A stretch of 24,519 bases of DNA from Bryobacteraceae bacterium (lineage in GTDB: Bacteria > Acidobacteriota > Terriglobia > Bryobacterales > Bryobacteraceae): the NCBI GenBank assembly GCA_035633775.1, contig DASQEG010000470.1, forward strand, positions 1-24,519. The letters run 5' to 3'. Of the stretch, positions 28 to 11,382 are shown in pieces. How positions within the stretch are numbered: the stretch's first letter is position 1; every line of letters begins with the position of its first letter. The notes beneath the pieces are model-generated. The model was not told where the DNA came from and ran no database searches. It was given only the letters and a program-made list of their open reading frames with translations. The position numbers were made by a program, and so were the translations under genes.

Positions 28-990
28 TCAGAACCCTTCCCAAACGTAAGCAGAGAACCGCCGGGCCGAACGAAATCCGACGCGCTGGTACAGTCGGATC
101 GCTTCCGTGTTCGATGCTGTGACCGTGAGACTTGCCTTGGCGCAGCCGAGGGTTGAAAGGCTCGCGAGGGCGTGCCTCAGGAGTTCATAGCCCAGCCCTG
201 TGCCGCGCACCTCCGGCGTGACGCAGATCTGGGTGATGTGTCCCGTCTCCTGTGCGACTACGCTGCTGAGAACTACTCCCTTTACCCGATCGTCGGCATC
301 GACAGCGAGCAGTGACGCGGATTCCTGGAAGACGCCACACCCCGGATACTGAATTACATTCGCCAGAAATCGGCGCGCGCCCAGCCACGTCCGGTACTGG
401 TCGTTAATGCGTGCGTCGACATGGCCCTGATAGGACGAGGCGATCGCCATGGCGGCCTCGTCGTGGAGGGCCGAGTCCCAGGTAAGCAGGCGATGTGAAC
501 CGATGTCGTGCGCCGGGAGCTCATCAGTCAGGCCGGTCTCGGCCAGCATCAGCACGCGCGAAAATGCCTGAGCATAACGCGAATAAGGGGTCGTACGGTC
601 AAAAGCGCCGTGGACGAGCATCATCTGCGCTTCGATCCGCCGAATGCCGGGCGTCCGGAACAGGCCGCCGAGGAGCGCACTCAGCAGGATGCCGGCGTTC
701 GCTGCCGTGTCAAACGCCCGAATCAGGTAGAGATCGCCGATCAGCCCTTTGCCGTCCTCGCAAACGTAATAGCCGTAGCCCACCACGCGCCCGGCCAGAA
801 CCAGTGCGTACCCACTCAATGCGTGGATCCGCACAAAGCGCCGCACGAGTTCAGCGGAGGGCTCAAAGTCCCAGTGGAGGGCCGTCCTCCAGGACATGCA
901 CTCCTCCCGGAGCAGCTCCTCAAGATCCGGGAGGGCGATGCGCGTCAGGTCGACCAGTTCGGGCGCGAATCGGTCCGGAGCAGCGGCCAT
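28..990 (-). CDS. GNAT family N-acetyltransferase, about 320 aa, probably tandem GNAT (degenerate N-terminal half, intact C-terminal half)
   Basis: C-terminal acetyl-CoA motif ITQICVTPEVRGTGLGYELL and LTVTASNTEAIRLYQRVGF. Start moved from 1158 to the ATG at 990 (MAAAPDRF): the upstream extension is not protein-like, overlaps the next gene, and a TATAAT lies 7 nt upstream of 990. Confidence 0.85.
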   Translation of the reverse strand: MAAAPDRFAPELVDLTRIALPDLEELLREECMSWRTALHWDFEPSAELVRRFVRIHALSGYALVLAGRVVGYGYYVCEDGKGLIGDLYLIRAFDTAANAGILLSALLGGLFRTPGIRRIEAQMMLVHGAFDRTTPYSRYAQAFSRVLMLAETGLTDELPAHDIGSHRLLTWDSALHDEAAMAIASSYQGHVDARINDQYRTWLGARRFLANVIQYPGCGVFQESASLLAVDADDRVKGVVLSSVVAQETGHITQICVTPEVRGTGLGYELLRHALASLSTLGCAKASLTVTASNTEAIRLYQRVGFRSARRFSAYVWEGF

Positions 991-997
991 TGCCGGT

Positions 998-1026
998 ATT
1001 ATACGTGTCCCGTCATTCTTTTGGAA
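998..1026 (-). promoter_or_regulatory. Putative sigma70 promoter of the GNAT gene (leaderless or near-leaderless transcript)
   Basis: Minus strand reads TTCCAA (1026-1021), a 17-nt spacer, then TATAAT (1003-998), ending 7 nt before the ATG at 990. No Shine-Dalgarno sequence is present. Confidence 0.55.
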
Positions 1027-1127
1027 CCTGGGTGATCCACTCGAAGTGCAGTCTGCGCGACTACTACTGGCGCGCAGATTGGGGAATAGCAAGCTGCGCA
1101 AATTCATCGGATGATGGACGGGAGAAC

Positions 1128-1958
1128 ATGAGGACAAGCAGATTTCTGATGAGCGCACTGAGCGCTCTCGCAGCCGGACAGGTCGCCTGGGCGGGTGTCA
1201 CCATTCCGAACGGTACAAAGCTCAGCTGCCGCCTCGAGCAGACGATCTCGTCGGCAACAGCTGAAGAAGGACAGCAGGTGCAGCTGTCGGTCACTGACCC
1301 GGTCCGTATTAACGGGGTGGTCGTCATTCCGCAGGGCGCGCCGGTGCTCGGCACCATCGTCATGGCACAGGGCAAAAGAAGCATGGGTCGCTCCGGGAAG
1401 CTCGATTTCTCGGTCGACAAGGTGCGTGCAGCGGACGGAGCGTTCGTTCCGTTGCGCTACCACATGAATAAGAAGCAGGGTGAAGGAAAGGGCATGTCCA
1501 CGGGCATCATGACAGCCGGCGCCGCCGTCCTGTTCTGGCCTGCCGCACCCTTTTTCCTGATGCGCAAGGGCAAAGACATAAACATCAACAAGGGGATCGT
1601 TTTCGAGGTTTTCACGGATCAGGATCATGACACCGGCGGTGCCACCGTCTCCGGCCCTGTCGCTCCTGCGCCGCCGCAGACGCTCGCCACCCAGCCTCAG
1701 GTCATGCTCGCCGCACAGCAGCAGGTGGTCCCGGCTGCCGCGACGCCCGCCGAGCTGGCGACGGTGAACATTACGTCCGATTTGCCCGGCGCCGAAGTAG
1801 AGGTGGATGGCGTTTTCGTGGGCAGCACTCCGGCGTCCACGAAGCTTGCGCCTGGAGTACACAAGGTTCAGGTGAAGCATGGCTCTGCCGCATGGAGCCG
1901 CGATTTGATGGTTCAGCCGAACGGAACTGTAAACGTTAACGCAATTCTCAGAAAGTAA
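1128..1958 (+). CDS. Secreted protein with N-terminal TrbI/VirB10-like beta domain and C-terminal PEGA domain, 276 aa
   Basis: GGAG at 1121-1124 precedes ATG 1128. Signal peptide MRTSRFLMSALSALAAGQVAWA. PEGA signature VNITSDLPGAEVEVDGVFVGSTP...LAPGVHKVQV. Pro/Ala/Gln linker. The ORF-track start at 495 is a shadow of the GNAT gene. Confidence 0.8.
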   Translation: MRTSRFLMSALSALAAGQVAWAGVTIPNGTKLSCRLEQTISSATAEEGQQVQLSVTDPVRINGVVVIPQGAPVLGTIVMAQGKRSMGRSGKLDFSVDKVRAADGAFVPLRYHMNKKQGEGKGMSTGIMTAGAAVLFWPAAPFFLMRKGKDININKGIVFEVFTDQDHDTGGATVSGPVAPAPPQTLATQPQVMLAAQQQVVPAAATPAELATVNITSDLPGAEVEVDGVFVGSTPASTKLAPGVHKVQVKHGSAAWSRDLMVQPNGTVNVNAILRK

Positions 1959-1974
1959 GCTCTTCTCCACTCAT

Positions 1975-2008
1975 GAGGGGGGCCGCATTGGCCCTCCTCG
2001 ATTTTATT
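1975..2008 (+). terminator. Intrinsic terminator after the PEGA gene
   Basis: 10-bp stem GAGGGGGGCC (1975-1984) / GGCCCTCCTC (1990-1999) with one G-U pair, loop GCATT, followed by GATTTTATT. Confidence 0.7.
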
Positions 2009-2082
2009 CACGTCACACCGTCGCCGTTGTCCCCTGCGGCCCTGCCGTTTGCGCTTATGATGTTGTCACAAGACGAGCGCAT

Positions 2083-4902
2083 ATGCCGACCAATTTCAGA
2101 GAATTCTTTCCCCAGGAACTTGCCTCCCTGCTCGCGGCATTTCCATTCCAGCGCAGAATCACGAACGTCCACCTGCACCATACATGGCGTCCCAATCACT
2201 CTCAATTTCGCGGACTTACGTCAATCGAGAGCATGGACCGCTTCCATACGGAACAGGGATTTGGCGGGCTTGCACAGCATTTGACGCTGGCGCCTTCCGG
2301 ATCTTTATGGACCGGGCGCGACTGGAATCGCAGGCCCGCTTCCGCACGGGGCTTTAATGGCAACAATATCGCCGGCCCGTTTATGATCGAGATGGTCGGT
2401 GATTTCGACAGCGGCAAGGATCCGTTCATCGATCCGCAACGCAGCAGTGCTATTGAAACAGTCGCTACACTTCTGCGGTTTTTCGGCTTGCCGGTAAGCA
2501 GTCTGCGATTCCACAACCACATGTCGTCCAAGACGTGTCCGGGCTCGGGCCTCGACTATGACGGCTTCTGCGGTGAGGTCGAGGCGGCGATGAGCGCACG
2601 GCGTGATCTGTCGTCAGGCACCGGCGGCGAGCGCGGGCCTTTTCCCGAGTCGGCGCGTCTCGGCGCTCCGAACTCTTCACGGATTAGCGACCTGGTGGAT
2701 TCGTTGCGCGCGACTACGGGCGGGGCGCGCGATCTGGAATCTGATGCTGAGCCTCCAGAGGAACTTGCGGACCGGGACACGATCCTGATGATGCGTGGCG
2801 AAGGTGTTCCGTCCGGTGCACGCGGGGGTGACCGTGACCTAACGTCGGACGAGTTGGAAGAACTGCGGCCTTACGCCATCAATCTCCGTCAGGGCCGGCT
2901 CTCGAAAGGAGGCATCTTCAACACATCGAAGGGCCACGTTGAAGCGATTTTCCGTGAGCATCTGGTGCGTGCCTATGATTCGAAGCCCCAAGGTGATCCG
3001 CTGCGGATTGTGCTCTGGGCGCACGGCGGGCTGGTGAGCGAAGCAAAGGGCCTCGGCATTGCACATCTGCAGCACAAATGGTGGCTGTCCAATGGATGCT
3101 ATCCAATCCACTTTATTTGGGAATCGGGGCTGCTCGAAACATTGCTGCCCTTCTTCGGCCGTGGTGTTACGCGTGATTTCTTCGATTTCACCAGCGATTT
3201 TGCAATTGAGCAGGCGGTTCGAGTTCCTGGCAGCGGTATATGGGGGCTGATGAAGCTAAGTGCCGAAGCCGCTTCGACTGCTGAAGACGGAGGCGCCCTG
3301 CTGGCAGCACGCCTGCTTGCCGAATTCTGCAGCTCACGGCCGGAGGTGGAACTGTATGCGTGTGGCCACAGTGCCGGCTCGATTTTTCACAACCACTTTC
3401 TTCCCGCGTGCCGGGCGTCAGGCGTGCCGAACTTCGAGTGGGTCCACTACCTGGCCCCTGCTGTTCGGGTGAACAACTTTCTCGAGAAGCTGCATCCGCT
3501 CGTCGGCGATTACGTAAAGCGCATCTCAATTTACACGATGCACGAGGCGCTTGAGAAGGACGACAACGTGGCGCGTGTATATCGGAAGAGCCTGCTCTAT
3601 CTGATTCGAAATGCGCTTAACCTCGAGTTCCGTTCCGACATCCTGGGTCTGGAGGAGTGCCTGCTTGAGAACGATCAGCTGAAAGCGACCTTCGGGCTCG
3701 CAGGGCACAGTTCCGCCGCAGGCGATTGTGTCTTCTCGAAGACCTCGTCCGACAGCGGCCGAAATGCGAGCCGGTCTACAACACATGGCGGCTTCGACAA
3801 CGATCGGCCCACCATGCACTCGATTGCTCGCCGCGTGCTGAAGATGAACGATTCGGACCCACTTAAGGCCGACTTTCCCGTGCAGGCCAGCCGGGATCTG
3901 TTTGCGGGCATGGAGTTTCCGATGCCTGCCGTGCCGTCCGTATCCACCTCGATGCCCCAGGCAACTGCGGCAGTCGCAGCCGGATGTACCGTCCCCAGCC
4001 GCGGTGGAAGTGGCGGTAAGACGATTGCGCTTTGTGTGGGCATCGACACCTATCCCACTGCCCCTCTGAACGGTTGCGTCCATGACGCACGACTTTGGGC
4101 GTCGACGTTCCGAGACCTCGGCTTTGATGAAGTACGCATGCTCGTGAACAGCGAGGCTACGCACGCCCGCATGACGGCCGAACTGACGCGGCTTGTCTCC
4201 GAGGCTCAGTCCGGCGACTGCATTGTCTTTCAGTACGCAGGCCACGGAACGCACGTGCCTGACATGGAGGGCGATGAAGAAAAAGGCGAGGACCAGGCGT
4301 TTGTTCCTGTCGATTACGAGGCAGGCAGGCACCTGATCGATGACGAGGTAAGGCTCATCTTCTCGCGAAAGAGTCCCGGCGTGAATCTTACCTGCTTCAT
4401 CGACTGCTGCCACTCGGGGACCATCACGCGCATGCTCGGTGGAGGTCGACCGCCCTTCGCGCCGGGCGAGAACGCGCGCTTCCTCAAACTGACAGACACC
4501 GAAAAGGACAGGTACCGCGAGTTCCGGAGCACGCACCCGGTGAGCAGGGCGCAGCCGGGGTTCTATGCCGTGTCCTTCTCCGCATGTCAGGACCACGAAG
4601 TAGCGCTTGAGAATGCAGGCCAGGGTGATTTCACTCGCAGGGCAGTGCCGCTCCTCCGCAGCGGTTTTCGCAAGATGTCGCACGCCGATTTCCAGCGTCA
4701 GGTGGTTGGGGCGTTCGGCTCCGCACCGCGGCAGAACCCTAAACTTGACTGCGATGCAGCTGTCACGAACAATGTCCTGCTGGCATGCGTGGCGCCGTCG
4801 GGTCAAATTAAAGCTGTGTCCTCCGGGGGAGGCGTCGACGTCGTGGATCGTATCCAGGCCGGCCTGCGGCAGATCAGTCTTGATCTTGAAACCCTGAGGT
4901 AA
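2083..4902 (+). CDS. Three-enzyme fusion, 939 aa: Amidase_2/PGRP-like N-acetylmuramoyl-L-alanine amidase (aa ~22-165), alpha/beta hydrolase (aa ~255-590), metacaspase/peptidase C14 (aa ~646-900)
   Basis: Amidase: VHLHHT (H32/H33), E103 in MIEMVG, H144-x7-C152 in HNHMSSKTCPG. Hydrolase: HGG 314-316, GHSAG with S430, D493/D494, H568 in THGGFDND. Caspase: IALCVGIDTY, QYAGHG (H721), IDCCHSG (C776), FSACQDHE. No signal peptide. Confidence 0.9.
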   Translation: MPTNFREFFPQELASLLAAFPFQRRITNVHLHHTWRPNHSQFRGLTSIESMDRFHTEQGFGGLAQHLTLAPSGSLWTGRDWNRRPASARGFNGNNIAGPFMIEMVGDFDSGKDPFIDPQRSSAIETVATLLRFFGLPVSSLRFHNHMSSKTCPGSGLDYDGFCGEVEAAMSARRDLSSGTGGERGPFPESARLGAPNSSRISDLVDSLRATTGGARDLESDAEPPEELADRDTILMMRGEGVPSGARGGDRDLTSDELEELRPYAINLRQGRLSKGGIFNTSKGHVEAIFREHLVRAYDSKPQGDPLRIVLWAHGGLVSEAKGLGIAHLQHKWWLSNGCYPIHFIWESGLLETLLPFFGRGVTRDFFDFTSDFAIEQAVRVPGSGIWGLMKLSAEAASTAEDGGALLAARLLAEFCSSRPEVELYACGHSAGSIFHNHFLPACRASGVPNFEWVHYLAPAVRVNNFLEKLHPLVGDYVKRISIYTMHEALEKDDNVARVYRKSLLYLIRNALNLEFRSDILGLEECLLENDQLKATFGLAGHSSAAGDCVFSKTSSDSGRNASRSTTHGGFDNDRPTMHSIARRVLKMNDSDPLKADFPVQASRDLFAGMEFPMPAVPSVSTSMPQATAAVAAGCTVPSRGGSGGKTIALCVGIDTYPTAPLNGCVHDARLWASTFRDLGFDEVRMLVNSEATHARMTAELTRLVSEAQSGDCIVFQYAGHGTHVPDMEGDEEKGEDQAFVPVDYEAGRHLIDDEVRLIFSRKSPGVNLTCFIDCCHSGTITRMLGGGRPPFAPGENARFLKLTDTEKDRYREFRSTHPVSRAQPGFYAVSFSACQDHEVALENAGQGDFTRRAVPLLRSGFRKMSHADFQRQVVGAFGSAPRQNPKLDCDAAVTNNVLLACVAPSGQIKAVSSGGGVDVVDRIQAGLRQISLDLETLR

Positions 4903-4909
4903 AGAGCGA

Positions 4910-6544
4910 ATGGAGTTTCAATGGGGCAGCAGGATCACCAAGCCTGCCAATTGCATTCCCTATGAGCGGACGGCGGATGACCCTGTCTTCCGTCCGCTCC
5001 GCATCTTCGCCGTCGACCCGCTGGTGTCTCAGTTCGAAGGCGCGATAGCTACCGTTCAGGTCCCGTACGAGCCGCTGAAGCCGGGCCCTGTCGGTAGCAC
5101 CATGGAAGTTCTCTGTCACGACGGGTATCAGGAGAACGAGCCCGCCGATCTCGACAACCCGCGAGTCCTGATTGAGAACGGGTACGCTCCATCGGTAACG
5201 AACCCGAAGTTCCATCACCAGATGACGTATGCAGTTGCATCGCTGATCTGTGCAGCGTTTCGCAAAGCGCTCGGGCGGCAGATTCTCTGGGGCTTTGACG
5301 CACCGCGCCTGCGAATACGGCCTCACGTTCCCGGAGTGGCGGATGCGTGCTACGACAAGGCAACGGGAGAACTGCGCTTCGGCTACAGCAAGGATGGTGA
5401 CGGGCGGTACGTGTTCGCAGCCCTGTCCCACGACGTGATTGCACACGAGTGTGCCCATGCGCTGCTCGATGCGCTTCGCACTCACCTCAACTTGCGTTCG
5501 AATCCGGACGTTGAGGCTTTCCACGAAGGTTTCGCCGACCTTGTCGCACTCCTGCAACACTTCACCTATCCAGAGGTAGTGCGCGCCGCGATTCAGAAGG
5601 CCGGCGGGAACCTGGCGCGCGCGAGTCTGCTGACCGAGATCGCCAGCGTGCTCGGCTACAACATCCCTGCAGCAGCCGAGCGCACCGGAGTGCGGAGCGG
5701 TGTCCGTGTCGAGGCGGAGAACGTTGACGACCCGCACACTCGCGGATCAAGGCTGGTTGTAGCGGTCTTCGACGCGTATCTCACGCTATTCCGTCGCAAG
5801 ACGGCACCCTTCATCCGGCTGGCAACGGGTGGCACGGGAGTACTTCCGCCCGGTGCACTGCCGTACGACCTGGTCGAGGTGCTGGCAAAGCGCGCATCGC
5901 GACTGGCAGAGCAGATCCTGCGCATCTGCATTCGTGCTATCGACTACTGCCCGCCCGTCGATCTGGAGTTGGGTGAGTTCCTCCGTGCGATGATCACGGC
6001 GGATCGGGACGTTGCGCCGAACGATCCGTACGGATATCGTGAGGCGTTCATCGATGCATTTCGCAAACAGGGCATCTACCCAAGCGGCGTGAGCATGCTC
6101 AGCGAAGACGCGCTTGTCTGGGGCACGCCCGAGATGCGTATTCCCTCCATAGACGATCTGACGTTTGCTCAACTGCAGTTCCGTGGCGATCCTGCGACTC
6201 CGGCCAGCCTTGACGAGATTCAGAGGCAGGCCACCGCTCTGGGCAGGATCGTCACAGACAGGCGCTACGCCTATGTATTCGGGTTGAGTCCGAGTGATCA
6301 GGGCGCCAGTCCTGCAAGCATCGAATCGATCCGCACAGCGCGGCGGATCGGGCCGTACGAGTCAGTCGTCTTCGATCTGGTCGCCGAAGTAACACAGGTC
6401 CGGGTACACGATGGCATCAGAGTTTATGGGGGCTCAACGATCATCATCGACCCCGAGGGGCGGGTGCGGTACAGCATTGCCAAGAACGTCCTCAGCCGGC
6501 GTCGGTGGGAGGCGCACCGTGAATACCAACACGACGCCCGTTAG
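4910..6544 (+). CDS. Zinc metallopeptidase (gluzincin, M4/M36-like fold) without signal or propeptide, 544 aa
   Basis: HDVIAHECAHALLD (H179-E180-H183) and FHEGFAD (E206, third ligand). Starts 7 nt after the fusion stop, with GAGG at 4896-4899. N-terminus is hydrophilic. Confidence 0.85.
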   Translation: MEFQWGSRITKPANCIPYERTADDPVFRPLRIFAVDPLVSQFEGAIATVQVPYEPLKPGPVGSTMEVLCHDGYQENEPADLDNPRVLIENGYAPSVTNPKFHHQMTYAVASLICAAFRKALGRQILWGFDAPRLRIRPHVPGVADACYDKATGELRFGYSKDGDGRYVFAALSHDVIAHECAHALLDALRTHLNLRSNPDVEAFHEGFADLVALLQHFTYPEVVRAAIQKAGGNLARASLLTEIASVLGYNIPAAAERTGVRSGVRVEAENVDDPHTRGSRLVVAVFDAYLTLFRRKTAPFIRLATGGTGVLPPGALPYDLVEVLAKRASRLAEQILRICIRAIDYCPPVDLELGEFLRAMITADRDVAPNDPYGYREAFIDAFRKQGIYPSGVSMLSEDALVWGTPEMRIPSIDDLTFAQLQFRGDPATPASLDEIQRQATALGRIVTDRRYAYVFGLSPSDQGASPASIESIRTARRIGPYESVVFDLVAEVTQVRVHDGIRVYGGSTIIIDPEGRVRYSIAKNVLSRRRWEAHREYQHDAR

Positions 6545-9033: not shown

Positions 9034-11382
9034 ATGCATCAGAGATTTGCAACCTCAGCAATTGTTATCCTCAGCGCACTGGCTGCACGGGCGCAAGGAC
9101 CTTTGAAACCGGCCGTGCCCGAGCCTGCCCGCGTCGACACTCACAAGGCAATCTCGGCAAAACTGGCAAGGACCGCCACAGGGCAGGGACTGACGCTGAA
9201 GTGGCGCCGCAACGGCAGCGTGCAGTCGGCCGCGGGATTCAGGTCTCGCGCGTATGCGGGGACGAAGCTGCAGGCCGCTCAATCGTTCCTTGCCGAGCAT
9301 TCAGAACTGGTCGGGCGCGCAGAAGTCTTGCCCTTCAATGAGAGGCGTCTTGGCCAGCGCACATTCATTCGCTTCCAGCAGCGGTTGCACGGCATTCCGC
9401 TTCGAGGCGCACATCTTGTAGTCAGTCTCGGCTCGGACAACTCCGTCGGCGGGGTTAGCGCACACCTTGAGCCCGCCGCGCAGGTGCGCGGCGAGTGGCG
9501 GCTGACGGCACAAGACGCGATCACACGGGCGGTCCGGGAGCACGGTGCCGCGGCCTCGGACACACCTACTGCTGAAAAGGAGTACGTGCTCGTGGAACAA
9601 AACGCCGTTCCCGCCTGGCGTGTGCGATTCGACTCGGCTGACCCTGCAGGTACCTGGGAGTACGTCGTAGCGGCCGACGATGGCCTGATTCTCGAACGGC
9701 AGAACCTCCGCCGCGGCGTCAGTGCACAAGGTTATGCTTATCCGCGGAATCCCGTCCGAGGCGAGCGTGAACGCGTGATGCTGGACAATCTTGGGACTGA
9801 CGGTTCGCTGACCAGCGCACAAACCAAAGTCTTCTCTTACCTGCCTGCTCTGAAAGGCCAGGTTGAACCAGGAACTGTGGTGCAGGGCGCGGCCATGCGA
9901 GGCGGCAACTTTCTGTACGAGGCCGATGACGCGCGAGCCGCCGAGGTGCAACTCTACTGGGGCATGGAAACCGCGAGCGCACGGTTTCGCGCACTCGGTT
10001 TCGAGGGCTTCTCGCAGCCACTTCAGGGTGTGGTCCTCTACCAGGACTGGGACCCGGAGAAGAAGCGCTTCATCGGGGCGGACAATGCGTTCTTCAAGCC
10101 GGGCGCGTTCGGTGAAGGCCGCGGTGGTATTTTCTTCTACCTGACGAGCCGACAGGGCGACACTTCTCTCGACACCGACGTCATTTTTCACGAGTACACG
10201 CATGCGGTGGTCAACGAACTCGTGGGTCCGCGACAGAGTGCAGGCTTCCGAGCACTAAACGAAGGCACAGCCGATTACTTTTCCAGCAGCTTCCTCGACG
10301 ACCCTGTGATGGCGGAGTATGTGGCGAAGATCTTCGGCCTGCGGTCCCCGTTCCTTCGCAGGACCGACAATGAGCAAGCCTGGCCCTACAGCGCAGTTGG
10401 AGAAGAGCACGCCGACGGCAACATCTGGAGCGGCGCCTTGTGGGATGTTCGGCGCGTGCTCGGTGCGGCAGCAACGGATGAGATCGCAATTAACACCGTT
10501 GCGTTCCTGTCGCCCGACGCAGAGTTCTACGATGCGGCAGAGATGGCTGTGCTCACGGCTGAGGAGCTTTATGGTGAGCGCACGGCGGAGCTGGTCGCTA
10601 AAGTGATGGGGCAGCGCGGTCTGCTCACGCAGGCCGCAGAAACTGCCGCGAATTCACGATGGCTTGAGTCTGGCGCCTCTGCCGAGGGAACGATTGCAGC
10701 TGCCAGGCCCGGGTACCTCCTTCTCGGCGAGCAGCAATACAGGATCGAAGTGCCGCATCGCGCGACAAAGTTGAACGTTCGCGTACGGGCGAACAGCGAC
10801 GCGCGATTCTACATCCGTTATCGCGTGCCGGTCACCATCGAACAAGGCAAGCTGCAGGCCGAACAAATGTCGGACACCGGGACGAGTCTGGGCGGGTACC
10901 TGTCTGTTGAAAATACCCCGGAGCTCCAGGCCGGCACATACTACGTCGCTGTCGTCAACGCTTCAACGAGCCCGCTTGAGTATAGTGTGCGAGTTGAGGT
11001 GGACGACTACAACCCCGCCGCTCGTCCTGCCCTTATCGCTGTCCGTGACGGTGAGACTGTCCAGGGGTCGCTGCCGTCAGGACCGTTCCTCGGCTCGAGG
11101 CAGTTCGCGGTCGAGGTGCCCGAAGGCACGTCTGCCCTGTCCCTCACGCTGGAAGGTGACGAGGACGTTGACCTGTACGTTCGTCAGGGCCGTTTCGTGA
11201 CCGTCAACGGCACCGGGTTCCCGGAAGCCGATCTGGTCGCCAACAGCCCCGACACCCGTGAGTACCTTCGCATTACAGGAGAGAACGGCGGGCCCATACC
11301 GCCCGGCGTCTACGTTGTAGGGACATATAACTACAGTCAGGCAACCACGCGCTTTCGCTTAACGGCCCGCTTTGAGCGGTGA
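9034..11382 (+). CDS. Secreted M36/M4-family zinc metallopeptidase with FTP/PepSY propeptide and two C-terminal PPC-like beta domains, 782 aa
   Basis: Signal peptide, propeptide-like FIRFQQRLHGIPL and AWRVRF...WEYVVAADDG, VIFHEYTH (H386-E387-H390), LNEGTADY, EEHADGNIWSGALWD, and repeated YRIEVP/FAVEVP...DxDxYxR modules. Confidence 0.88.
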   Translation: MHQRFATSAIVILSALAARAQGPLKPAVPEPARVDTHKAISAKLARTATGQGLTLKWRRNGSVQSAAGFRSRAYAGTKLQAAQSFLAEHSELVGRAEVLPFNERRLGQRTFIRFQQRLHGIPLRGAHLVVSLGSDNSVGGVSAHLEPAAQVRGEWRLTAQDAITRAVREHGAAASDTPTAEKEYVLVEQNAVPAWRVRFDSADPAGTWEYVVAADDGLILERQNLRRGVSAQGYAYPRNPVRGERERVMLDNLGTDGSLTSAQTKVFSYLPALKGQVEPGTVVQGAAMRGGNFLYEADDARAAEVQLYWGMETASARFRALGFEGFSQPLQGVVLYQDWDPEKKRFIGADNAFFKPGAFGEGRGGIFFYLTSRQGDTSLDTDVIFHEYTHAVVNELVGPRQSAGFRALNEGTADYFSSSFLDDPVMAEYVAKIFGLRSPFLRRTDNEQAWPYSAVGEEHADGNIWSGALWDVRRVLGAAATDEIAINTVAFLSPDAEFYDAAEMAVLTAEELYGERTAELVAKVMGQRGLLTQAAETAANSRWLESGASAEGTIAAARPGYLLLGEQQYRIEVPHRATKLNVRVRANSDARFYIRYRVPVTIEQGKLQAEQMSDTGTSLGGYLSVENTPELQAGTYYVAVVNASTSPLEYSVRVEVDDYNPAARPALIAVRDGETVQGSLPSGPFLGSRQFAVEVPEGTSALSLTLEGDEDVDLYVRQGRFVTVNGTGFPEADLVANSPDTREYLRITGENGGPIPPGVYVVGTYNYSQATTRFRLTARFER

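Follow-up and report, generated by a model that had tools for sequence, protein, structure and literature searches.

We report a two-gene cassette in a stretch of 24,519 nucleotides from a Bryobacteraceae bacterium (GenBank assembly GCA_035633775.1, contig DASQEG010000470.1; we call this whole stretch the window). Gene 1 encodes a fusion of an amidase, an alpha/beta-hydrolase, and a caspase-like protease of the metacaspase type, and gene 2 encodes a thermolysin-like zinc protease without a leader. On balance, we favor the reading that the cassette is a self-contained and mobile module for cell death or abortive infection that is gated by proteases: the caspase would free effectors that are carried in cis, and gene 2 would act upstream of the caspase. 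An earlier reading of this DNA, made without database searches (the sequence-only reading), had proposed a cassette of this kind.

Both genes are on the forward strand, in the order and with the 7-nucleotide spacing that the sequence-only reading had given them (from the list of open reading frames, or ORFs, in the window). Its upstream terminator is also present: a hairpin with 12 pairs in its stem (positions 1974-2000; 8 of the pairs are G-C) is followed by a run of T. The two genes are likely to be co-transcribed, with coupled translation. As had been claimed, no transmembrane segment was found in either protein (the highest Kyte-Doolittle mean over 19 residues is 1.28 across the two), and the N-termini do not resemble signal peptides. 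We infer that both products are cytoplasmic.

Gene 1 joins three enzymes

The C-terminal part of gene 1 matches Peptidase_C14 (PF00656) over amino acids 647-859, with 86.4 bits (the cut-off is 21.4). In PADLOC, only the generic "caspase" model matched (5e-18), and the caspase models that matched in NCBIfam were weak or generic. Among structures in the PDB, GSU0716 from Geobacter aligns with the whole domain, whereas the metacaspases Yca1 (yeast) and TbMCA2 (trypanosome) align with the p20 part only; the motifs of the domain align with GCxxDA and DxCHSG of Yca1. All 120 of 120 homologs have the catalytic dyad (H721/C776) and two acidic residues of the S1 pocket, D668 (after the GC motif) and D774 (two positions ahead of the catalytic cysteine); C665, in the same pocket, is likewise invariant. 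(For each gene, we aligned 120 full-length homologs, and the conservation counts in this paper are from these alignments.) We assigned the C665/D668/D774 pocket by way of the structures of TbMCA2 and Yca1, and we take such a pocket to give specificity for arginine or lysine. These features support placing the caspase with the Arg/Lys-specific metacaspases.

The middle part of gene 1 had no match in Pfam, NCBIfam, or PADLOC. We folded amino acids 255-645 with AlphaFold2, using an alignment of 51 homologs, and obtained a model with a mean predicted local distance difference test (pLDDT) score of 88, a predicted template modelling (pTM) score of 0.85, and an alternating order of strands and helices. 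When this model was compared to the PDB with Foldseek, the matches were lipases, cutinases, and esterases (probability 0.94-1.0, with weak E values of about 1e-3 and template modelling, or TM, scores of about 0.3). The matches in the AlphaFold Database were strong and included the same domain fused to proteases of the caspase, papain-like C1, CHAT, and trypsin-like types. The HGG motif (314-316), S430 (in GHSAG), D494, and H568 are invariant or nearly so, which gives a Ser-Asp-His triad in the canonical order. The middle of gene 1 is thus confidently modelled as an alpha/beta-hydrolase fold.

This hydrolase domain also occurs in other settings. Stand-alone copies of 362 and 422 amino acids have no protease gene nearby. 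On a metagenomic contig (L089, 6001-13278), a 783-amino-acid protein with the hydrolase domain is followed by a Trypsin_2 protein, a caspase with Y4kD_C, and another trypsin; this is a different multi-protease operon around the same hydrolase family.

The N-terminal part of gene 1 matches Amidase_2 (PF01510; amino acids 23-154, 37.8 bits, cut-off 26), and its best match in the PDB is T7 lysozyme (1ARO, E = 8e-7). Judging from the sequence, its membership in the amidase-fold family is beyond doubt. The conserved zinc ligands H33, H144, and C152 align with His17, His122, and Cys130 of T7 lysozyme (mature numbering), and K150, at the position of Lys128 of T7 lysozyme, is kept in 117 of the 120 homologs. 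The amidase of gene 1 thus shares the His/His/Cys ligands and the catalytic lysine with T7 lysozyme, AmpD, and the catalytic peptidoglycan recognition proteins (PGRPs). Like T7 lysozyme and AmpD, it has no export signal. AmpD is a cytoplasmic Amidase_2 enzyme; T7 lysozyme has no export signal and reaches the wall only after the membrane is damaged. In contrast to T7 lysozyme, the amidase is fused to two other enzymes and has glutamine (Gln65) where T7 lysozyme has the catalytic Tyr46. This glutamine is found in 119 of the 120 homologs, and because it replaces the catalytic tyrosine, it is uncertain whether the amidase is catalytic. The sequence-only reading had described the catalytic residues of gene 1 as apparently intact. 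This holds for the hydrolase and the caspase, as well as for the protease encoded by gene 2 and for the zinc ligands and lysine of the amidase, but not for the amidase's tyrosine. With that exception, all four active sites look as if they have been maintained by selection.

Conserved arginines in flexible segments of gene 1

If the caspase cleaves the fusion protein, then arginines should be conserved in flexible segments between or within the domains, and we identified three candidates. R364 (codon 3172-3174) is an arginine in 120 of 120 homologs, within the motif R-D/G-hydrophobic-x-D. The loop that holds it is of lower confidence and leads directly into the hydrolase's long, lid-like helices, and R364 is retained in fusion loci that have no metalloprotease gene. 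The other two candidates stand out within linkers that vary elsewhere. R247, in the first linker, is an arginine in 105 of 120 homologs and is mostly followed by glycine or aspartate (the consensus is A-R-G/D); its column holds 3.6 bits, as compared to under 1.6 bits for the neighboring columns. R604, at the beginning of the second linker, is an arginine in 117 of 120 homologs, followed by G, A, or S and then by a hydrophobic residue (4.2 bits, again with under 1.6 bits for its neighbors). The pLDDT falls below 50 at residues 350-378 of the domain model, and R604 lies where this disorder sets in.

Our alignment-free check of the motifs at R247 and R604 was crude, as linkers of this kind often contain an arginine with a small residue after it. 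Given this, and given that the placement of these two columns depends on the alignment, we consider R364 to be robust and R247 and R604 to be probable only. Conserved arginines in flexible segments, together with an arginine-type pocket, would fit autoprocessing by the caspase, which is in line with the cleavage that the sequence-only reading expected.

Gene 2 encodes an unusual relative of thermolysin

We found no match to gene 2 in Pfam (including M4, M4_C, and M36 at E <= 0.1), NCBIfam, or PADLOC. When folded with 61 homologs, gene 2 gave a model with a mean pLDDT of 87.8 and a pTM of 0.90. Residues 24-400 of this model superimpose on the whole mature forms of M36 fungalysin, LasB, and thermolysin (VIA Z of 17.6, 16.5, and 16.2, respectively; Foldseek E = 9e-5). 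The motif HECAH (179-183, codons 5444-5458) has H179, E180, and H183 in 120 of 120 homologs each, and so do E206 and D210 of the motif HEGFAD, with 23 residues from H183 to E206. H276 is invariant or nearly so. The assignment of gene 2 as an HExxH...E metallopeptidase, which had been made by eye, is therefore confirmed by the invariance of H179, E180, H183, and E206 and by the thermolysin-fold model.

Gene 2 thus has the whole catalytic fold of the secreted M4 and M36 peptidases (Z of 16-17.6 over about 265-296 residues), as well as their HExxH motif, their glutamate ligand within ExxxD, and a histidine at the position that is expected for stabilizing the transition state. In contrast to these peptidases, it has no signal peptide, no FTP or PepSY propeptide, and a location that is presumably cytoplasmic, and it has an extra C-terminal domain of about 145 amino acids. 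Because the fold matches without any Pfam match, leader, or propeptide, we consider gene 2 to represent a distinct and unannotated cytoplasmic family in the thermolysin clan. There are over 2,400 scored homologs of gene 2, some of which are named "peptidase M4" by NCBI.

The C-terminal domain is conserved across the family: in all subfamilies, coverage by tblastn extends to around residue 540. A search of the ESM Atlas with this domain returned only fragments of its own family and weak NTF2-like matches (TM of about 0.4). Residues 245-269 form a disordered loop close to the half of the protein with the active site, and this loop carries an L-R motif (R262) that is found in every subfamily. We considered R262 as a gate that the caspase might cleave, and ruled this out because the L-R motif is kept in subfamilies that lack a caspase and are linked to hydrolases of the metallo-beta-lactamase (MBL) fold. 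A prediction of the complex between gene 2 and the caspase domain (amino acids 640-939) scored 0.15, as compared to a mark of 0.34, and counts neither way on binding.

The two genes are inherited and transferred together

We identified over 400 full-length homologs of gene 1, with 42-74% identity. The gene pair is found in more than 10 phyla, with unrelated flanks. For instance, Opitutaceae (Verrucomicrobiota), Polaromonas naphthalenivorans (Betaproteobacteria), Nitrospira, and metagenomic contigs all have the genes in the same order, with gaps of 3-7 nucleotides or overlaps. If we start from the hydrolase domain, then gene 2 lies downstream in 58 of the 73 fusion loci that could be assessed. 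To survey the partners of gene 2, we retrieved 80 loci, out of at least 590 relatives in contigs from a collection with one genome per species; a hydrolase-caspase gene lies directly upstream of the metalloprotease in 36 of these.

The pairwise distances for gene 1 and gene 2 are strongly correlated (Mantel r = 0.86, which was not reached in any of 2,000 permutations, or r = 0.68 if considering distant pairs only); this shows joint descent and transfer and is not proof of a physical interaction. In the nearest relative, a metagenome-assembled genome (MAG) from Bryobacteraceae, the proteins are 74-76% identical, and the similarity is confined to about 2058-6526, or the borders of the cassette. 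The type of partner tracks the tree of the metalloprotease family, in which sister taxa come from different phyla (such as Chromatiales with Chthoniobacterales). The distribution is also patchy. The family of gene 2 is present in 10 of 36 genomes from the same taxonomic family and in 0 of 24 genomes from other families of the order, and the hydrolase domain is present in 34 of 250 genomes from the gammaproteobacterial family that holds Pseudoxanthomonas. The linkage, the correlated distances, and the sharp borders bear out the claim of a self-contained two-gene module. The co-occurrence and patchy distribution that a survey of gene neighborhoods was expected to show are also there.

Some individual loci are informative about copy number and decay. 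The source genome has a second and divergent copy on contig C203 (L111: 3-1145 and 1138-3006), which is cut off by the edge of the contig: the end of the hydrolase and the caspase are followed by a thermolysin-like gene of 622 amino acids, with an overlap of 8 nucleotides, and the identity of its gene 2 to the copy in the window is 48-51%. The genome may have two paralogous systems side by side, or else the bin is a mixture. In a Burkholderiales MAG (L088, 6001-8313), only a 770-amino-acid amidase-hydrolase gene remains and the thermolysin-like gene is gone; the slot, from a YjgF-like gene to parC, is the same one that holds the full pair in Polaromonas naphthalenivorans CJ2 (L004). This looks like a decayed copy of the cassette. 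On a megaplasmid of Kovacikia minuta (L113, 13308-15234), two overlapping ORFs of 464 and 204 amino acids, with no match in Pfam, take the place of gene 2 and may be a frameshifted copy of it. Transposase genes of the IS1, Mutator, and Y1 types are within 10 kb on this megaplasmid.

The N-terminal hydrolases are interchangeable

In some relatives, the amidase is replaced by DUF7379, a PGAP1-like alpha/beta-hydrolase (loci L018, L040, L063, and L065; one locus also has DUF7362). A genome from the source's own family (L106) encodes an amidase-caspase fusion without the middle hydrolase, and gene 2 still comes after it. In another locus (L037), a caspase of 280 amino acids stands alone with gene 2, and in L035, a TPR-CHAT protein is upstream of gene 2. 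A 2012 survey of metacaspases (PMC3501461) described a homolog from Chitinophaga with an added GDSL lipase. The constant core is thus a caspase-fold protease and a thermolysin-like protease, with N-terminal hydrolases that are interchangeable. As the N-terminal enzymes are swapped or missing in relatives, they are probably cargo effectors rather than sensors. This agrees with the proposal that the effectors are carried in cis: a position that holds an amidase, DUF7379, or nothing fits an effector better than a sensor.

The tree of gene 2 has two clades, both with support of 100 in the Shimodaira-Hasegawa-like approximate likelihood ratio test (SH-aLRT). The first is dominated by the hydrolase-caspase partner. 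In the second, an ORF of 447-566 amino acids lies directly downstream, with a match to Lactamase_B in 2 of the 3 that we tested, and a patatin gene or a fusion to an S8 protease is often present. The MBL-linked sister clade would place this family of metalloproteases in two-gene arrangements of a protease and an effector.

We also noticed some other partners. In one subclade of gene 2, an ORF of 105-127 amino acids is directly upstream. In L034, L042, L044, L047, L048, and L068, this ORF has 105-118 amino acids, with gaps of 2-46 nucleotides or an overlap of 4 nucleotides; the two that we tested had no match in Pfam, including Pepco. These ORFs may be undescribed small effectors that are licensed by the protease. 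In Hymenobacter sp. (L114, 12901-16152), the fusion is followed, in place of gene 2, by a 1,083-amino-acid protein with weak matches to LCAT (lipase-like) and CHAT, which is an alternative partner. Desulfopila sp. IMCC35006 (L115, 4550-9929) has the fusion without gene 2, and directly upstream of it is a cluster with several proteases: Pepco, CHAT-CHASE2, a FecR/PASTA protein, and a caspase of 271 amino acids. Pepco is a tested family of pore-forming effectors that are activated by proteases (Evans et al. 2025, bioRxiv 10.1101/2025.11.14.688446).

Proposed mechanism

Cleavage, the sequence in which the two proteases act, the trigger and substrates, and any part in defense against phages are all inferred, and we propose the following. 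The product of gene 1 would be a latent polyprotein. Once active, the caspase would cut it after R364, and probably also after R247 and R604. These cuts would release the T7-lysozyme-like amidase and would convert the hydrolase from a zymogen to an active enzyme. The freed amidase and hydrolase would then attack the cell envelope from the inside, similarly to a holin-endolysin pair or to the action of LcCaspase on LcHydrolase (described below); alternatively, the amidase might act on cytoplasmic precursors. A lipase-like partner would make functional sense because T7 lysozyme needs membrane damage to reach the wall. In a cascade of two proteolytic steps, gene 2 would be the initiator, and possibly the sensor, much like SAVED-CHAT in relation to PCaspase. 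We place gene 2 upstream because it is the only protease beside the MBL hydrolase in the sister clade and because its C-terminal domain is conserved across the family.

Several observations weigh against this reading. Gene 2 as the upstream initiator is its weakest step: the metalloprotease is absent from about one fifth of the fusion loci, which makes it a frequent but not an obligate partner, and some subclades of the metalloprotease lack the fusion. Neighboring genes that are inherited jointly will have correlated distances whether or not their products interact. Within gene 1, the amidase has Gln65 instead of tyrosine, and the columns of R247 and R604 shift in a second alignment. We did not find a recognized sensor domain in the cassette, known defense components among the other ORFs of the window, or a match to any system in PADLOC. 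The genes around the cassette, in the window and in most of the contexts that we inspected, are housekeeping genes and not defense islands, so this part of the expected neighborhood pattern did not hold. Finally, a profile search of the 250 genomes from the family of Pseudoxanthomonas found mainly long fusion-like frames and no clear hydrolase of about 300 amino acids adjacent to a caspase, and it did not show homology between the hydrolase of gene 1 and LcHydrolase.

The proteases might instead act in the reverse order, with the caspase as the sensor and initiator, and the thermolysin-like protease as a latent executioner of broad specificity that is unlocked by the caspase. The version with a caspase alone and the metalloprotease (L037) implies that one of the proteases must be the effector; the metalloprotease does have a disordered loop near its active-site half; and the fusion exists without the metalloprotease, as expected if the metalloprotease is optional cargo. 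However, the only invariant arginine in that loop (L-R262) is found in every subfamily and hence is intrinsic rather than a caspase site, and the metalloprotease of the sister clade, as the sole protease beside an MBL hydrolase, looks like an activator. We consider the reverse order to be unlikely, but still a serious rival. Developmental and stress-related roles in cell death have long been proposed for bacterial metacaspases, and a module for regulated autolysis or for the stress response (death during development or nutrient stress, unrelated to phages) would suit the housekeeping-type neighborhoods and the hosts, which are soil and sediment bacteria. The 2012 survey (PMC3501461) interpreted the Amidase_2-metacaspase fusions in this way. 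In contrast, the cassette is patchy even within one family, has been transferred between phyla with precise borders, and is associated with Pepco-CHAT and MBL modules, which are hallmarks of conflict systems. An autolysis module with no link to phages therefore seems quite improbable to us, although the stress and defense readings are mutually compatible.

Two other explanations fare worse. The sequence-only reading had suggested, as its alternative, an antibacterial toxin that is exported by a non-classical route, with the amidase and lipase acting on competitors and the metalloprotease as a maturase. Amidase and lipase-like domains are common as cargo of interbacterial toxins, and the absence of a signal peptide is shared with some secretion-system cargo. 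But we detected no marker domain for a secretion system in gene 1 or gene 2, and no secretion system or recognizable immunity gene in the neighborhoods that we inspected, and it is not evident what a caspase in the same polypeptide would do in a toxin that is delivered to other cells, so we think an exported toxin very improbable. We give even less credence to housekeeping enzymes of the cytoplasm that were fused by chance (AmpD-like recycling of muropeptides and general proteolysis). There is the precedent of AmpD-type enzymes, and the flanking genes look like housekeeping genes, but most of the relatives that we searched gave no match to the metalloprotease family, and the hydrolase domain is in just 34 of the 250 genomes. 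Furthermore, there are two divergent copies in one genome and a decayed copy at a syntenic site, and the cargo domains are swapped. Overall, we continue to favor the protease-gated module.

Comparison to described systems

Parts of this cassette have been described before. The Amidase_2-metacaspase fusion was already listed in the 2012 survey (PMC3501461). In the vWA-MoxR and GAP1 conflict systems, as Kaur et al. 2020 (PMC7159879) reported, a caspase domain never occurs without the gene of an alpha/beta-hydrolase alongside it. Evans et al. 2025 (bioRxiv 10.1101/2025.11.14.688446) showed that LcCaspase from Lysobacter capsici cuts LcHydrolase after Arg73 and Arg117 (with glycine following arginine). 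LcHydrolase is a zymogen that is toxic only after cleavage, the two arginine sites flank a fragment that is excised, and there are 161 homologs. We read our cassette as a probable variant of such caspase-hydrolase zymogen modules. As in that pair, our cassette couples a caspase-fold protease genetically to a lipase-like alpha/beta-hydrolase, the flexible segments of the hydrolase contain conserved arginines (one of them directly before the lid), and a death effector would be licensed by proteolysis. In contrast, here the hydrolase and the caspase are in one polypeptide with an amidase at its N-terminus; this polypeptide carries none of the STAND, WD40, or vWA-MoxR sensors; there is a thermolysin-like partner; and at the invariant site, R-D is the most common sequence rather than R-G.

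Caspase-family proteases also operate downstream of nucleotide signals. Steens et al. (bioRxiv 10.1101/2023.06.23.546230) showed that proteases can act in a cascade, with SAVED-CHAT activating PCaspase, and Rousset et al. (bioRxiv 10.1101/2024.10.24.620036) found that the caspase of type IV Thoeris is specific for arginine and promiscuous. These systems share with our cassette a caspase-family enzyme with an expected preference for arginine, and their outcome is abortive infection; SAVED-CHAT and PCaspase are also two proteases that are encoded together. However, they respond to a nucleotide (cA3 or N7-cADPR), while the window contains no cyclase, TIR, or SAVED, and our second protease is a zinc metalloprotease instead of a CHAT protease. 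More broadly, the other ORFs in the window have none of the partners (gasdermin, cyclase or SAVED, Cas7-11/Csx30, TIR, MBL nuclease, and STAND or helicase sensor) that define the gasdermin, CBASS, type III-E Craspase, type IV Thoeris, canu, and Avs/Hachiman protease-MBL systems.

MBL pro-nucleases are licensed by trypsin-like, caspase-like, and subtilisin-like proteases, as in the trypsin-MBL pairs of Hachiman and AVAST and in the caspase-nuclease "canu" (PMC12799240; bioRxiv 10.1101/2025.11.14.688446). Similarly, relatives of gene 2 in the sister clade are directly upstream of MBL-fold hydrolases, although the window itself has no MBL gene. Neither PMC12799240 nor Evans et al. 2025 mentions a metalloprotease. 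Our literature search turned up no anti-phage work in which caspases have a thermolysin-like partner, and none on a PGRP together with a caspase as the effector of a conflict system. Novelty, which the sequence-only reading had left to a search, is thus partial. The fusion has been on record since 2012 and the pairing of hydrolase and caspase since 2020, with tests of the pairing in 2025. What we did not find described is the family of thermolysin-like partners with its clade structure, the caspase-metalloprotease core, the swapping of N-terminal hydrolase cargo, and the in-cis polyprotein with its conserved arginines.

Features of the cassette and the surrounding genes

Table 1. Features of the cassette, with positions in the window
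Feature	Position	Strand	Evidence or remarks
Terminator-like hairpin and T-run	1974..2008	+	sets the cassette apart from the upstream PEGA-domain gene (end at 1958), which it closes
Gene 1, fusion of amidase, alpha/beta-hydrolase, and metacaspase-type protease (939 amino acids)	2083..4902	+	ORF, Pfam, homologs
Amidase_2 domain (T7-lysozyme/PGRP-type), amino acids 23-156	2149..2550	+	Pfam, alignment to 1ARO, conservation
Variable linker 1, amino acids 160-257, with R247 (codon 2821-2823)	2560..2853	+	information content of columns
Alpha/beta-hydrolase domain, amino acids 258-600	2854..3882	+	AlphaFold2 model m7258b21cfde5, Foldseek, conservation
Linker 2, amino acids 601-645, disordered, begins with R604 (codon 3892-3894)	3883..4017	+	model, conservation
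Metacaspase/orthocaspase-type C14 domain, amino acids 646-900	4018..4782	+	Pfam, PADLOC, PDB matches, invariance
Gene junction	4896..4909	+	GAGG (4896-4899) inside the end of gene 1, stop codon TAA (4900-4902), 7-nucleotide spacer, then ATG of gene 2
Gene 2, leaderless thermolysin-like zinc protease (544 amino acids)	4910..6544	+	ORF, homologs, model
Catalytic part with thermolysin/fungalysin fold, amino acids 24-400	4979..6109	+	VIA Z, Foldseek, invariant residues
Extra C-terminal alpha+beta domain, amino acids 401-544	6110..6541	+	secondary structure of the model, tblastn coverage

Elsewhere in the window are genes for a GNAT acetyltransferase, a PEGA protein, an ABC-2 permease, a sulfatase, a secreted M36 peptidase, a DUF885 protein, an alpha/beta-hydrolase, MacB/FtsX permeases, Obg, a PQQ dehydrogenase, and proteins with planctomycete-type cytochrome domains. 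A domain scan of these other ORFs found no gasdermin, cyclase, TIR, SAVED, or STAND domains, just as the sequence-only reading had said of gasdermins, cyclases, and STAND sensors. There is no tRNA gene in the window, and the G+C content is even along its whole length. The M36 peptidase (9034-11382, forward strand) lies 2.5 kb downstream of the cassette. It is a classical secreted peptidase of the fungalysin type, with an FTP propeptide motif and a C-terminal PPC domain, and so it is an ordinary exported relative of gene 2's clan.

The longest ORFs for the GNAT protein (28-1158, reverse strand) and for the PEGA/TrbI-like protein (495-1958, forward strand) overlap by about 660 nucleotides. As the GNAT domain lies toward the low coordinates and the PEGA domain occupies 1761-1958, the true start of the PEGA gene is probably well downstream of 495.

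The source genome is 83.5% complete, with 2.5% contamination, and is in 1,036 contigs. The sequencing runs in which this stretch occurs are all of soil-metagenome DNA, with no RNA run among them.

Implications

A broader idea, which we doubt but consider worth stating, is that gene 2 founds a new class of sensor protease. Its C-terminal domain, which is unique to the family, would sense a cue of infection or damage without an NTPase or a nucleotide messenger and would set off a cascade from metalloprotease to metacaspase; the endolysin-like amidase and the lipase-like enzyme would be freed, leading to lysis from within, while sister clades would license MBL nucleases and small proteins. The family would then be a general and undescribed hub of immunity in prokaryotes.

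The role of metacaspases in bacteria is a long-standing question. Within 4.5 kb and with no external sensor, this cassette encodes two proteases, one of them a caspase, along with two candidate death effectors, so it is amenable to reconstitution in the laboratory. If our reading is correct, then zinc metalloproteases would join the proteases that gate the death effectors of bacteria, the cassette would be an example of effectors that are carried in cis as a polyprotein, and the large and unannotated family of gene 2 would gain a function.

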